From: an uncultured Ruminococcus sp.
GTDB taxonomy: Bacteria > Bacillota > Clostridia > Oscillospirales > Acutalibacteraceae
Assembly: GCA_905233145.1 (NCBI GenBank)
Contig: CAJODI010000017.1
Coordinates: 15,599-79,598 of the forward strand
Reading direction: 5' to 3'
DNA length: 64,000 nt
Positions 12,679 through 31,928 of the stretch are shown piece after piece; the stretch's first letter is position 1, and each line of letters starts with the position of its first letter. The translations under genes were made by a program, and so were the position numbers. Under the pieces are notes generated by a model, which made no database searches, was not told the origin of the DNA, and worked only from the letters and a program-made list of their open reading frames with translations.

Positions 12679-14037
12679 ATGGCGAAAATTAAAAGTGTAT
12701 ATATTTGCTCGGAATGTGGCTACGAATCACCGAAATGGTATGGGAAATGCCCCTCCTGCGGCGAATGGAACACCATGAACGAAGAAATCAAGGAGCAAAC
12801 CAAAGCTTCCTCAAAGACTTCTTCAATAAGACGAGAATTTGCAAAGCCTTTTGCAATAAATGAAATCACAACCGACGACGAGCACCGATATGACACCGGA
12901 AGCAAGGAGCTTAACCGGGTTTTGGGCGGCGGAATTGTAAAGGGCAGCTTGATTTTGCTCGGCGGCGATCCGGGAATAGGAAAGTCAACTGTACTGATGC
13001 AAATATGTCAGTATCTCGGCGACACATTGCGGATTCTTTATGTTTCGGGTGAGGAATCAAAGCGACAGCTAAAGCTGAGAGCAATAAGGCTTGGAGTTGA
13101 TTCTCCAAATCTTTTTATTATGACTGAAACCGATGTCGAAGTGGTTTGCGAGCAAATCAGGATAGAAAAACCGGATTTGGTGATGATTGATTCTATCCAA
13201 ACCATGAACCTGACTGAGCTGAGCTCTTCACCAGGAAGTGTAACTCAGGTCAGAGAATGTACAAATATGCTAATGCGCACCGCCAAAGGCTGCGATATCC
13301 CAATGTTCGTTGTTGGACATGTGAACAAAGAAGGCTCGATTGCAGGTCCAAAGGTTTTGGAGCATATTGTAGATACTGTTCTGCATTTTGAAGGTGACAA
13401 ACAAATGAGCTGCCGAATTCTAAGGGCGGTCAAAAATCGCTACGGCTCAACAAATGAAATCGGTGTATTTGAAATGACCGACAAGGGGCTGAGCGAGGTT
13501 GAAAATCCCTCTGTTATGCTTCTTTCGGGGCGTCCAAGCGGGGTTTCGGGAACCTGCGTAACCTGTACAATTGAAGGCTCCCGACCGATTTTGGCTGAAA
13601 CTCAGGGATTGGCAACTCAAAGCGGTTACGGAAACGCGAGAAGAATGGCTACCGGCTACGATTACAACCGCCTTTCAATGCTGCTTGCTGTGCTTGAAAA
13701 GCGCGCAGGATATTATTTTTCAAACTGTGATACATATATAAATATTGTAGGCGGTCTCAGAGTTGACGAGCCTGCAATAGACCTTTCAATTGCAATGGCG
13801 TTAATCAGCAGTCTGAAGGACGCTCCGGTTGATGAAAAATCGGTCGTTTTTGGTGAAATAGGTCTTGCAGGAGAAATTCGTTCCGTTTCTCAGGCTCAAA
13901 TGAGGGTTAATGAGGCAGTCAGGCTTGGTTTTAACAAAATTATTCTGCCTTATCACAATCTAAAGGGGATTCATTGTGAAGAAGCGAAGCTTATCGGCGT
14001 AAAAAATATTCGCGAAGCGTTTGAGGCGATAAGCTGA
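12679..14037 (+). CDS. radA: DNA repair protein RadA/Sms
   Basis: CSECGYESPKWYGKCPSC zinc finger, GGDPGIGKST, KNRYG motif. Confidence 0.97.
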   Translation: MAKIKSVYICSECGYESPKWYGKCPSCGEWNTMNEEIKEQTKASSKTSSIRREFAKPFAINEITTDDEHRYDTGSKELNRVLGGGIVKGSLILLGGDPGIGKSTVLMQICQYLGDTLRILYVSGEESKRQLKLRAIRLGVDSPNLFIMTETDVEVVCEQIRIEKPDLVMIDSIQTMNLTELSSSPGSVTQVRECTNMLMRTAKGCDIPMFVVGHVNKEGSIAGPKVLEHIVDTVLHFEGDKQMSCRILRAVKNRYGSTNEIGVFEMTDKGLSEVENPSVMLLSGRPSGVSGTCVTCTIEGSRPILAETQGLATQSGYGNARRMATGYDYNRLSMLLAVLEKRAGYYFSNCDTYINIVGGLRVDEPAIDLSIAMALISSLKDAPVDEKSVVFGEIGLAGEIRSVSQAQMRVNEAVRLGFNKIILPYHNLKGIHCEEAKLIGVKNIREAFEAIS

Positions 14038-14714
14038 TGGCAAAATTTGTGATGTCCGATATAGTTCCCGAATTTTTCAGAGCTTTTGAAAATTCAGGTC
14101 ACTGGGTAGAGGCAGCAAGATCTGTAGAAGTGTTTTTAAATCCTGAAAAAAAGCACGCAGATATGCAGCTTTTGCCAATAGGCGGAAAAATTATTGAATT
14201 AAATGAAGTCGATTACAGCTTTGAAAATACCATAAAGTGTGAAAAATCTGCCGAAAAAAATTATCCCGGAAATGTTTTGCTCAATTGTCTGCTGATGGAT
14301 AACAAGCTCTACGGAAAGTTAAGCGCAGTTGACAAAGCGGTTATAAAGCTGTGTGATTCGCTGGGGATTGAAAGAATAAACATAAACCAAGGTTATACAA
14401 GGTGCTCAACCTTGGTCATCAATGATAACGCCGCGATCACATCCGACATTGGAATCAAAAATGCTTTGGAAAAAAACGGGGCAAAGGTTTTGCTGATTTC
14501 ACCCGGCTATATTGAACTTAAGGGATTTGATTATGGCTTTATAGGCGGCGCCGGAGTATCCTTTGACGGAAAAACAGTATTTTTCGGCAATGTAAAAAAA
14601 CACCCTGATTATGAAAAAATCAGGGCTTTTTGTGAAAAAAATAATTCTAATATAGAGATCTGGTGTGAAAATCTTCCTTTGACTGATATAGGCGGAGCTG
14701 TTAGAATTAATTAA
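14037..14714 (+). CDS. Conserved clostridial protein, DUF6873-like (putative GME/pentein fold)
   Basis: HADM, YPGNVLLN, NQGYTRCS, ITSD, GFIGG and LTDIG motifs; TGATG coupling to radA. Confidence 0.55.
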   Translation: MAKFVMSDIVPEFFRAFENSGHWVEAARSVEVFLNPEKKHADMQLLPIGGKIIELNEVDYSFENTIKCEKSAEKNYPGNVLLNCLLMDNKLYGKLSAVDKAVIKLCDSLGIERININQGYTRCSTLVINDNAAITSDIGIKNALEKNGAKVLLISPGYIELKGFDYGFIGGAGVSFDGKTVFFGNVKKHPDYEKIRAFCEKNNSNIEIWCENLPLTDIGGAVRIN

Positions 14715-15688
14715 TCGCGCTTTGAAACGTTCGCAAGCGGATTGCTGTCAGCGGCGTTTTTGAGTTGTTCGCTGCTTAGGTGAGTGTATATTTCGGTAGT
14801 ACCCAGATTTTCGTGTCCGAGCACCTCTTTAAGCACCCTTACGTCAACATCGCCGTGCTGATACATCAGCGTTGCTGCTGTATGGCGAAGCTTATGGCAG
14901 GAGTAGCCCTGCGCACTGAGACCGATTTTTTCAAGGTATTTATAAACCATAGCCTGAATAGTTTTGACAGAAATTCGACGATGATTTCTGCTGATAAACA
15001 AAGCTTTTTTGTCCTTTACACCATCAACGGGACGAACACGCATATAATCATTTATAGCGTTGATGCAGGCGGAGTTAAGGTAAATCACACGTTCCTTGTT
15101 GCCTTTGCCTAAAACTCTGATAGTATTGTCATTTCTGATATCGGTGTAATTAAGACCGGACATTTCGGAAACACGCAGTCCACAGTTTAGAAACAATGTT
15201 AATATTGCATAATCACGTTCTTTATTATCTCCGTCAACAGCGTTTAGAAGCTCTATGCTTTGTTCAAGAGTTAGATACTTGGGCAAAGCTTTTTTCTTTT
15301 TTGGAATTTCAAGCTCTTCAACAGGATTGCTGCTTATAATATGCTTCTTTTTATAAATGTATTTAAAAAAGCCTTTTAAGCTTGAACATTTGCGCGCACG
15401 GGAAGAGGCGTTGTTGCCGCGTTCACGAAGAAGAAAATTCATAAATTCAAAAGAATCGGCAAGAGTGACAGAATTAAGAAATTCAGCGTCAATATCGTTA
15501 ATCAATATCTTATCAAACGGAGTATCATCAGAAACGATTCCGCGGTGAAGCTTCATAAAACGAAAGAAGGTTCTCAGATCAAGAAAGTATTCGTCAACGG
15601 TCTTGGGTGATTTTTGTCTGATGGTTTGCTGATAATTTAGATAGTCTTTAAGAATCGGAAAGGATTCATCTTGAAATCGAACTGACAT
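14711..15688 (-). CDS. XerC/D-type tyrosine recombinase
   Basis: Catalytic R (CGLRVSE), K (GKGNKER), HKLRH and LGHENLGTTEIY all intact; no phage or ICE genes alongside. Confidence 0.92.
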   Translation of the reverse strand: MSVRFQDESFPILKDYLNYQQTIRQKSPKTVDEYFLDLRTFFRFMKLHRGIVSDDTPFDKILINDIDAEFLNSVTLADSFEFMNFLLRERGNNASSRARKCSSLKGFFKYIYKKKHIISSNPVEELEIPKKKKALPKYLTLEQSIELLNAVDGDNKERDYAILTLFLNCGLRVSEMSGLNYTDIRNDNTIRVLGKGNKERVIYLNSACINAINDYMRVRPVDGVKDKKALFISRNHRRISVKTIQAMVYKYLEKIGLSAQGYSCHKLRHTAATLMYQHGDVDVRVLKEVLGHENLGTTEIYTHLSSEQLKNAADSNPLANVSKRD

Positions 15689-15811
15689 TTTTAATGCTCC
15701 TTGAGAAATAAGGTTACAGCGTTGCTAAAAGCAGACGACAGAAAAGGGTTAGGGTTATTGTATTAATAATTATATCACAGAATAAAAGCAATATAATTGC
15801 GAATTGGAATT

Positions 15812-15839
15812 ATTATACAAAATGAATATTTTGTATAAT
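15812..15839. other. Perfect 28-bp palindrome (11-6-11), candidate dif-like site or operator
   Basis: ATTATACAAAA-TGAATA-TTTTGTATAAT, 124 bp upstream of the recombinase start. The palindrome is seen; its function is inferred. Confidence 0.45.
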
Positions 15840-15941: not shown

Positions 15942-17075
15942 TTATTGATGCTTTTCGATTTCTCTGATTCCGAATAAATCCTCTTCAATTTCTACAGCCT
16001 TATCATCCGACATAGTCAATTCGTCGCAGCACTTGTAGAATTTATGATAATATTCCGCGGCATCATTCCAGCATGATTTTTGTTTTTCTGTCAGCTTTGT
16101 ATTTCTGATTATATATTTATCGTTTATGATTTTTCCAAAATACTCTGTAAAGCTTTTTGAACCGTATACGTTCAAATGCTGACGGTTGTAATACATATGT
16201 GCATTATAGCTCATGGTTTCGCGGTCACGCTCAAAGTTAATAAAATCAAAACCGTATTCATTTATAATCTTTTCTGCGGCATTTGCTCTGCAAAAAGCGT
16301 CATAGTCGCTTTCGGTTTCCAGTAAATGAGGCGCTCGTATAAACAGTACATTGATATTATTCTCGCTACAATAGCTGAGTGTTTCTCTGAGCTTTTTTTC
16401 ATACAACGGATATAAATCAAGTGTTGTATCATCATCAATAAGCTTTTGGTTCAAATACTTATCATCAAGCGGACAAATTCCGGTGTTGGTTTTGTAACCC
16501 TTTAAAAGCGTATGACCTCTTAAGTTTTGCAAAATCATTGCTCCTGAAAACTTTATACCTCCGGGATATTCCGTCCATGAATTGTGATATTTTATAAATG
16601 GTATGTGGTATTCTATCTCATTGTCTGTGTCGAGATTTTTTATATATTCACGTTTGTTATCATTGTATGGTATGTTGTCTATATATTTGCGTATGCTTCC
16701 TTCTTTATTTTCGTTACTGTCATCAGGATATAAGAACGGATTGATTTCTACGACAATAAGCTGCGGGTCCTGTGTGCGCATTATTTCTTTAAATTGAGTT
16801 ATTATTGCACCTGCGGTCAGCGATGCTGTAGCATAGGAATAGCTTGTAAAGCCGAATTTTTCGTATGCAAGTCCGGGCGCGAATCCTGTGTACATCTCGC
16901 TGGCACCCATAAAAACGACGTCAAGCGTATTGGGCTCTTCAAGATAAAAGCCGTTTATTCTGAGCTTGTTGTGATCCGGGTGGCACAAAATAAATTTTTG
17001 CAAAAACCATGTTGAGCAAAAAACAGCAAGCAGCAGCGATGTGATTTTTATAGTTCTAACAATATACTTATTCAT
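15942..17075 (-). CDS. Membrane-anchored SGNH/DltD-like putative acyltransferase or esterase
   Basis: N-terminal TM; LDVVFMGASE (block I) and NRQHLNVYGS (catalytic His block). Confidence 0.55.
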   Translation of the reverse strand: MNKYIVRTIKITSLLLAVFCSTWFLQKFILCHPDHNKLRINGFYLEEPNTLDVVFMGASEMYTGFAPGLAYEKFGFTSYSYATASLTAGAIITQFKEIMRTQDPQLIVVEINPFLYPDDSNENKEGSIRKYIDNIPYNDNKREYIKNLDTDNEIEYHIPFIKYHNSWTEYPGGIKFSGAMILQNLRGHTLLKGYKTNTGICPLDDKYLNQKLIDDDTTLDLYPLYEKKLRETLSYCSENNINVLFIRAPHLLETESDYDAFCRANAAEKIINEYGFDFINFERDRETMSYNAHMYYNRQHLNVYGSKSFTEYFGKIINDKYIIRNTKLTEKQKSCWNDAAEYYHKFYKCCDELTMSDDKAVEIEEDLFGIREIEKHQ

Positions 17076-31053: not shown

Positions 31054-31928
31054 TTTAACTCTCCGTATGGCATTTCTACGGTAATTCTTCCGAGCTTGGC
31101 GGCTCTGAATTCATCAAGCAGCATAACCGCCGCCCTTTCGGTGTTGACCTCGCCGCCAGAAATCAGCATACCGCGCTTTTTGGCAATAATTTTCAACAGC
31201 TCGTAAGAATCAATTTCATCCAAATCTGTTTCATCAAGCTTAAACCTTTCTATAAAATCGTCAGGTTTTATTTTTTTCAGAAAATCAAGCAGTCTGACAG
31301 CCAAAAGCTCAATATCAACGACCTGATCCTTGACCGCACCTGTAAAGGCAAGATGCTCGCCTACCGTTTGGTCGTCAAATTTAGGCCACAGAACACCGGG
31401 AGTGTCAAGCATTTCAAGGCTTTTGCTGATTGTAAACCACTGGTTTCCTCTGGTGACTCCGGGTCTGTCCTCAACCTTAGCTCGGTTTTGCTTTGCAATT
31501 TTATTAATAAACGAGGATTTTCCGACATTTGGGATTCCGACTATCATTATTCTCATAGTAGGATTTTTCATGCCCTTAGCCCTGAGCCTGTTTATTTTCT
31601 CGCTCATAACCTCGTTTACGGCTGACGAAAATTTGTTCAGCCCTCTGCCGCTTTTGCAGTCAACGGCAATTGCCTTGATACCCTGCTTAAAGTAATAGTC
31701 TATCCACATTTTGGTTGCGGTTTTGTTAGCCATATCGCATTTGTTCAGCAATACTATTTTGGGTTTGTTTTGAATAAGATTTCTTAAATCAGGATTTCTG
31801 CTTGAAACAGGGATCCTTGCGTCCAAAATTTCCGCGACAGCGTCAACCAGCTTTAAGCTTGCCTGAATCTGACGCTTTGTTTTTGTCATATGACCGGGAA
31901 ACCATTGTATGTTTTGCGTTTCGCTCAT
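31050..31928 (-). CDS. rbgA: Ribosome biogenesis GTPase RbgA/YlqF
   Basis: [25 protein letters not shown]. Confidence 0.96.

Follow-up and report, generated by a model that had tools for sequence, protein, structure and literature searches.

A probable palindromic dif site beside a lone Xer-type recombinase gene at the replication terminus of an uncultured Ruminococcus sp.

We analysed a 64,000-nucleotide stretch of the genome of an uncultured Ruminococcus sp. (the whole stretch is hereafter called the window), in which a 28-bp palindrome lies just upstream of xer, a gene for a Xer-type tyrosine recombinase. Sequence comparisons make it very probable that the palindrome is the chromosomal dif site, and that the adjacent gene encodes its cognate recombinase. 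The resolution of chromosome dimers is close to universal, and to our knowledge only a few single-enzyme solutions have been described (XerS, XerH and archaeal XerA). We also cautiously favour the wider view that Oscillospirales-type Clostridia possess a further, undescribed Xer system, in which a lone XerC/XerA-like enzyme would act on a symmetric 28-bp dif, XerD would have been lost repeatedly and would be unreflected in the site where it is kept, directionality would come from the centre and possibly from FtsK, and filamentous phages would integrate at the site. The genome of the window (G000) comprises 2.07 Mb in 128 contigs and is estimated to be 100% complete, and the contig that holds the window is 95.7 kb long. 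The features of the module are as follows, in window coordinates.

15812 to 15839, unstranded: putative dif-type recombination site of 28 bp, a palindrome with an asymmetric 6-bp centre (sequence, uniqueness, conservation and skew position)
15812 to 15822, unstranded: left arm ATTATACAAAA, presumed recombinase half-site; the inner ACAAAA is near-invariant in 69 sites, and the outer positions co-vary with the right arm
15823 to 15828, unstranded: centre TGAATA, the sole asymmetric part and presumed strand-exchange region, which varies among relatives
15829 to 15839, unstranded: right arm TTTTGTATAAT (sequence)
15689 to 15811, minus strand: xer leader and putative promoter region, where the arm toward xer reads TGTATAAT, an extended -10 (sequence)
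14711 to 15688, minus strand: xer, lone Xer-type tyrosine recombinase of 325 aa, P0001 (domains, catalytic residues and model scores)

The first-pass annotation had described a perfect palindrome with 11-bp arms and the core TGAATA at 15812-15839, and the sequence confirmed this description. The site reads ATTATACAAAATGAATATTTTGTATAAT, a perfect inverted repeat of the form ATTATACAAAA-TGAATA-TTTTGTATAAT, which can equally be written as 12-nt arms flanking GAAT, since the outermost core bases pair too. By analogy with Xer/dif geometry, cleavage would occur on either side of the 6-bp centre. The site is located upstream of xer, at a distance of 123 nt from its ATG (15688) rather than the 124 given previously, and 103 nt downstream of the stop codon of the next minus-strand open reading frame (ORF; 15942-17075). 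A consensus promoter scan yielded a single weak promoter-like match, overlapping the site.

Dinucleotide shuffles predicted 0.16 perfect palindromes (arms of at least 11, spacers of 2-8) per 64-kb window. The real genome carries 26 perfect 11-6-11 palindromes, the others of which, where inspected, were mostly G+C-rich and terminator-like, and palindromy by itself was therefore dropped as evidence, leaving the weight on conservation, uniqueness and position. No second copy of the 28-mer was detected at up to 6 mismatches in 28 across the 2.07-Mb genome, and among the relatives, the zero-mismatch core pattern was present once in nearly every genome having the pattern. A canonical dif elsewhere in the genome, which would have spoken against the first-pass proposal, was also sought, and neither the B. 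subtilis nor the E. coli dif had a match in G000 at up to 7 mismatches. A pattern composed of the XerD arm plus core gave chance-level matches only, off the terminus, in G000 and four XerD-bearing relatives. One relative, G026, has two zero-mismatch sites, of which one adjoins xer. The second (locus L152, G026:C42, 5109-5132), whose centre is TTTGCA, is flanked by an unknown ORF and a SpoU methylase gene on a contig of 6.7 kb, with genes for an amino-acid kinase and a group II intron reverse transcriptase nearby.

Upstream of the orthologous gene, a palindrome built in the same way was present at 24 of 30 loci from relatives and at 44 of 80 loci from named Oscillospirales records, in line with the conservation that the first-pass annotation had proposed to check. 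In most of the linked loci the site lies 19-470 bp upstream of xer, with a distance that varies. Among the 69 distinct sites collected, the inner ACAAAA/TTTTGT was invariant or nearly so, while the outer five arm positions were lineage-specific (ATTAT, ACTCA, ACGCA, ATTGA, GGTCA, TAGTC and others), with both arms changing jointly. Double-sided changes occurred at 11 of the 14 arm positions (118 cells over the 69 sites), a level reached by none of 500 shuffles. Furthermore, the co-variation signal was abolished by shifting the partner column, and the symmetry ended past 12 bp per arm. The seed used for the collection fixed the inner six bases only, and most of the sites were symmetric at 11 of 11 positions. 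The centre is variable among the relatives (TGAATA, TAAAAA, TAAAGA, CATTGA and others), and is found in both orientations relative to xer. The strict symmetry of the two arms fits a single protein that would read the site twice. In G033 (L065, 5980-6045) and G031 (L156, 9005-9050), the palindrome extends to arms of about 20 bp with G+C-rich outer parts, at gene ends, and these extended forms could double as a transcription terminator.

The position of the site is that of the replication terminus, as the first-pass annotation had proposed. Crude gene calls on the 95.7-kb contig gave 14 plus-strand and 8 minus-strand genes to the left of the site, and 2 plus and 55 minus to the right, so the reported convergence of gene orientation also held. 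The cumulative G-C of the contig climbs up to the site, reaches its maximum in the site's own 500-bp bin (contig position 31,500; site at 31,410-31,437), and then declines steadily over the next 64 kb. This polarity, a maximum with converging G-rich leading strands, is that of a terminus, not an origin. The complete genome G002 from the same genus (2,427,278 bp, dnaA at 19 kb) carries the site at 1,292,283, on the cumulative G-C plateau at 1,292-1,295 kb and 0.52 of the circle from dnaA. In G033, a complete genome from another family (2,229,578 bp, dnaA at 0.3 kb), the GC skew was positive in all samples to 1.14 Mb and then negative, with the flip at 1,143.5-1,146 kb; the perfect site AATTATACAAAAT-AGAT-ATTTTGTATAATT is located at 1,146,000, in an 83-bp gap between two convergent stop codons. 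The xer gene of G033 is 8 kb away, without such a site in front of it.

Family f27, in which xer lies off the terminus at 0.22-0.44 of the circle from dnaA, provided a test with a prediction made beforehand, namely that the bare inner motif ACAAAA-N6-TTTTGT should find the terminus site despite the displaced xer. The search returned one to four matches per genome, and in G091, G225 and G209 it found AATTATACAAAA-N6-TTTTGTATAATT. The G091 site, AATTATACAAAA-CTTACA-TTTTGTATAATT at 196,243, is 19 kb off the dnaA antipode and 690 kb from xer, and falls within the interval where the sampled skew flips. An identical site is present in G225, where dnaA was not located, with a local skew of +0.17 on its left and -0.16 on its right. 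In G209, AATTATACAAAA-TAAAAG-TTTTGTATAATT was located at 1,613,656; the local G-C maximum lies 1 kb away, the antipode about 13 kb away, and xer at a distance of 145 kb. One site per chromosome at the terminus or skew switch holds in G000 (at the contig level) and in closed G002, G033, G091, G209 and G225, with G247 ambiguous. In the drafts G027, G039, G031 and G025, the site and xer are on different contigs, and at the G027 site, gene orientation and skew both converge. G091 further encodes, some 1.3 kb away from its terminus site, a 203-aa recombinase fragment (G091:C1:197547-197999; 130 bits against the XerD model), which could be a relic of xer's former position or of an integrated element.

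The xer product, P0001, carries a SAM-like domain at its N-terminus and a catalytic domain of the Phage_integrase type. An alignment of 21 orthologues showed no variation at R172, K198, H265, R268, H292 or Y301, and the catalytic set R-K-H-R-H-Y is intact, as was the gene in the earlier description. The enzyme class was assigned from the scores of curated NCBIfam hidden Markov models, which amounted to 222.9 bits for the XerC model TIGR02224 (cut-off 335.15), 199.9 bits for the XerA model NF040815 (cut-off 220), 195.6 bits for the XerD model TIGR02225 (cut-off 329.6) and 145.4 bits for the XerS model NF003462 (cut-off 267), with no XerH family model among its curated-model matches. A search of the PDB placed E. 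coli XerD (1a0p) best with 116.9 bits, followed by the archaeal XerA structures 4a8e and 5hxy, with XerH (5jjv) at 57.6 bits. On these scores, P0001 is a Xer-subgroup enzyme, XerC/XerA/XerD-like, and is outside every named subfamily by the subfamilies' own thresholds. Orthologues were detected in 36 of 41 close and order-level genomes. In a wider sample of the order, limited to genomes with a completeness of 95% or more, an orthologue was present in 289 of 301 genomes and 148 of 153 genera, rarely in more than one copy. The record names of the relatives (Ruminococcus sp., Acutalibacter, Anaeromassilibacillus, Oscillibacter, Butyricicoccus, Faecalibacterium, Pseudoflavonifractor and similar) therefore indicate an Oscillospirales-like order.

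Within G000, xer was the best of eight Phage_integrase (PF00589) matches, the rest being phage-type integrases of 396-436 aa with long N-terminal regions, or fragments. The congeneric genome G021, which is 100% complete in 10 contigs, encodes just one tyrosine recombinase of any kind. No XerD-level match was detected in the 24 genomes of the genus sampled, closed G002 included, nor was XerD found in the closed f27 genomes, which keep the site. In the XerD-bearing relatives G025, G030, G031, G033 and G040, perfectly symmetric sites were found and a Bacillus-like dif was not. XerD adjoins or is near xer in G278, G040 and G033, and stands beside spoIIM in G033; its coordinates in these three genomes are as follows.

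L065, 15765 to 16646: XerD gene of G033
G278:C1:1950502 to 1951362: XerD gene of G278
G040:C25:217897 to 218757: XerD gene of G040

As judged from these distributions, the symmetric site tracks the P0001-type enzyme, which is ubiquitous, and not XerD, which is patchy. The term single recombinase thus has good support in this genome and in several families, without extending to the order as a whole. The earlier suggestion that symmetric arms suit one recombinase binding both halves stands for the genus and for several families, and is qualified by the sister lineages in which XerD coexists.

The core pattern was also present in 56 viral contigs of IMG/VR (L157-L212), 36 of which have the full 11-bp arms. 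We did not use this count as support, since the TATAAT of the arm could equally be a promoter in tailed-phage fragments. Two of the contigs, L163 and L171, contain the exact 28-mer of the window's genus in the order host xer (59% identical to P0001), site and, directly afterwards, a prophage. Both prophages encode a Zot-type morphogenesis ATPase and a rolling-circle Rep, and are inovirus-like.

L163, 2191 to 6628: inovirus-like prophage, starting within tens of bases of the site
L171, 3310 to 7688: inovirus-like prophage, starting within tens of bases of the site

No phage-borne integrase was found in the portion of these prophages seen. The layout is that expected of elements borrowing the host Xer, and partially supports such use. 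Inovirus-type contigs in the viral set were only L163, L171 and perhaps L199. A degenerate site-like sequence is present about 200 bp into the phage side of L171. Several other viral contigs (for example L207, L164, L162 and L177) are tailed-phage fragments with terminase and portal genes, in which the palindrome often has full ATTATACAAAA arms and may serve as a promoter or as a site of resolution or attachment.

Several observations weigh against the assignment of the palindrome as dif and of P0001 as its sole recombinase. True XerD (TIGR02225, 295-338 bits) is encoded in G025, G030, G031, G033, G036 and G040, and the XerD of G278, a member of the window's own family, comes close to the threshold (326 bits). 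Since XerD coexists with the symmetric site in such genomes, the enzyme is assigned to the site by linkage and co-occurrence. No other Xer-size recombinase was found in G000, a 128-contig draft in which a gap could hide a second xer, and the terminus call for this draft derives from one 95.7-kb contig plus the complete relatives. In G247, the arms of the best candidate extend over no more than 9 bp, its centre (TATATA) is itself palindromic, and it is off the local skew switch. As sites were kept only when at least 9 of 11 positions were symmetric, the paired percentage is inflated. Finally, the L163 and L171 contigs stop before the far junction, so only one junction of each prophage was seen.

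We weighed three other explanations against the dif assignment. The palindrome could be an operator or promoter element of xer and nothing else, in which the recombinase or a repressor would bind back-to-back extended -10 boxes, an alternative that the first-pass annotation had itself raised. Indeed, each arm reads TGTATAAT outward, most linked loci have the site 19-470 bp upstream of xer, and the weak promoter-like match overlaps it. However, the arms of many families (TTTTGTTGAGT, TTTTGTTGCGT, TTTTGTTCAAT, TTTTGTGACTA) lack a -10 box and are still perfectly symmetric, and the back-to-back -10 boxes are therefore a genus-level coincidence. Neither the distance to xer nor the orientation of the centre is constant, and the site is separated from xer in G033 (8 kb, between two convergent stop codons), in G091 and G209 (at the terminus, 690 and 145 kb away) and in G225. 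Since the site stays at the terminus when xer moves, it is not a mere xer operator, and this explanation, which fails as a general one, appears quite improbable.

Still less probable is a conventional two-recombinase dif whose XerD is merely missing from the draft assembly. The 128 contigs of G000 would allow for this, and some sister lineages with the same site do have XerD, near xer in G278, G040 and G033. However, G000 is estimated to be 100% complete and gave no XerD-like match, closed G002 and the 10-contig G021 with its one tyrosine recombinase lack XerD in the same genus, and closed f27 genomes without XerD retain the site; moreover, identical arms are unexpected for two half-site specificities. 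We assign the lowest probability to another structural element, such as a bidirectional terminator or cruciform, a transposon end or a purely phage attachment site, for which one may cite the location 103 bp downstream of the 15942-17075 stop, the G+C-rich growth of the palindrome to 20-bp arms between gene ends in G033 and G031, and the 56 viral contigs. A terminator was rejected, as the A+T-rich stem contains a single G-C pair in each arm, the T-run is absent, and the terminator scan called none at the site. The single copy per genome spoke against a repeat or mobile-element end, and the position of the site tracks the replication terminus rather than particular genes. Use of the site for attachment by integrase-less inoviruses, in turn, presupposes that the host recombinase acts there.

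If the palindrome is the chromosomal dif, its action can be outlined by analogy with the Xer/dif paradigm, from which binding, cleavage positions, dimer resolution, FtsK dependence and autoregulation are all extrapolated. Two copies of one recombinase would bind the two identical 11-12-bp arms, and once a crossover has linked the sister chromosomes, a pair of sites would synapse at the division septum, where the enzyme would swap strands over the 6-bp centre to restore monomers. With identical arms, the alignment of the sites and the sequence of strand exchanges could depend only on the asymmetric centre, possibly together with FtsK arriving along polarised DNA. G000 encodes one FtsK, with a gamma domain (99.7 bits). 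The E. coli consensus of the FtsK-orienting polar sequences (KOPS), GGGNAGGG, is oriented toward the site at 20:2, pooled over the G000 contig C17, G033 and G002, and GAAGAAG is also oriented toward it, whereas the top de novo 7- and 8-mers differ between genomes. Since GC skew and gene orientation confound all of these counts, the motifs were set aside as support. In the window's genus, where the arm forms an extended -10 toward xer, occupancy of the site would probably repress xer as a side effect. The site could thus be xer's own promoter and give autoregulation, at most as a secondary use.

The genes to the left of the module belong to a conserved neighbourhood, which is listed here with the corresponding genes of relatives.

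14037 to 14714, plus strand: DUF6873 gene, a conserved neighbour of the site (profile match; synteny in relatives)
12679 to 14037, plus strand: radA/sms, in the conserved radA-DUF6873-(xer)-dif neighbourhood; the same genes adjoin the site in G033
L065, 6051 to 6812: DUF6873 gene beside the site in a relative
L154, 7153 to 7911: DUF6873 gene beside the site in a relative
L156, 8303 to 8989: DUF6873 gene beside the site in a relative

In the window, xer is located between the DUF6873 gene and the palindrome. The 3' end of the DUF6873 gene is 33-83 bp from the palindrome in eight relatives' loci, including those of G033, G039 and G031, whose xer is elsewhere. This adjacency may reflect ancestral synteny (radA-DUF6873-dif) or a functional link. 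The 377-aa ORF to the right of the site (15942-17075, minus strand) had no match in a Pfam and NCBIfam search.

If the proposal is correct, a single-enzyme system would span an order that dominates animal guts, with the orthologue in 289 of 301 genomes and, by record names, with major gut genera such as Ruminococcus, Faecalibacterium, Oscillibacter and Acutalibacter among its members. Since the arms are identical, unequal half-sites could not explain which strand pair is exchanged first. ACAAAA-N6-TTTTGT with symmetric flanks could serve in practice to mark the terminus when draft and metagenome-assembled genomes of these bacteria are closed and oriented, and the site is likely to be the attachment site of integrase-less filamentous prophages. 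The accessible literature, which included few subscription journals, yielded no account of a lone Xer paired with a palindromic dif among Clostridia, and only XerCD, XerS, XerH and XerA were described. In a previous survey, dif prediction failed for two Clostridium species, the predicted sites of two quoted C. botulinum strains were about 174-176 from the skew shift in the angle units of the table, and Desulfotomaculum and Desulforudis, listed under Clostridia, had ordinary dif sites (Kono et al. 2011). A symmetric site of the present kind may explain the implausible sites obtained from Bacillus-dif profile searches in some Clostridia.

Among the known single-enzyme systems, XerS/difSL of Streptococcus and Lactococcus (Le Bourgeois et al. 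2007, PMC1914069; Nolivos et al. 2010, PMC2965235) resembles the present module in its one recombinase, its occurrence in Firmicutes, a site usually just upstream of the gene at the terminus, and the FtsK gamma domain. However, XerS has about 356 aa as compared with the 325 aa of P0001, which scores 145 bits against a cut-off of 267; difSL is an atypical 31-bp site, whereas the site here has 28 bp and identical arms; and gene and site are unlinked in several of the families analysed here. The proposal of a XerS-analogous, sequence-distinct clostridial system was accordingly upheld as to the linkage of the site with a lone recombinase, and needs revision in that the enzyme is XerC/XerA/XerD-like and the module order-wide.

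XerH/difH of Helicobacter and Campylobacter (Debowski et al. 2012, PMC3325230; Bebel et al. 2016, PMC5241119) likewise combines a single recombinase with two inverted arms and a centre, a site near the gene, and interacting mobile elements. XerH is, however, a distant protein of 354-362 aa (58 bits to 5jjv, as against 117 to E. coli XerD), and the arms of difH are imperfect repeats whose asymmetry sets the cleavage order, whereas the arms here are identical. The archaeal XerA/dif system (Cortez et al. 2010; Serre et al. 2013, as cited in PMC5357621) shares a single recombinase of XerC/D size and a 28-bp 11-6-11 site, and P0001 comes near the XerA model (200 against 220). In contrast, the score remains under the XerA cut-off, and the host here is a bacterium with an FtsK gamma domain, while XerA is reported to be FtsK-independent.

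With XerC/XerD-dif (E. coli; CodV/RipX in B. subtilis), the module shares the enzyme subgroup, the geometry and the terminus location. When compared with the reference dif sequences given in the supplement of Kono et al. 2011, the centre TGAATA is one base off the E. coli TGTATA, and each arm agrees at 8 of 11 bases with the XerD arm of E. coli dif (TTATGTTAAAT) and with that of B. subtilis dif (TTATGTAAACT). It differs in having one enzyme in this genome, which is under both equivalog cut-offs, and identical rather than XerC- and XerD-specific arms. Taken together, these sequence comparisons indicate that the system would be functionally akin to XerS/difSL, XerH/difH and XerA/dif, that the identical arms set its site apart from all three, and that its geometry and centre are closest to the classical dif.

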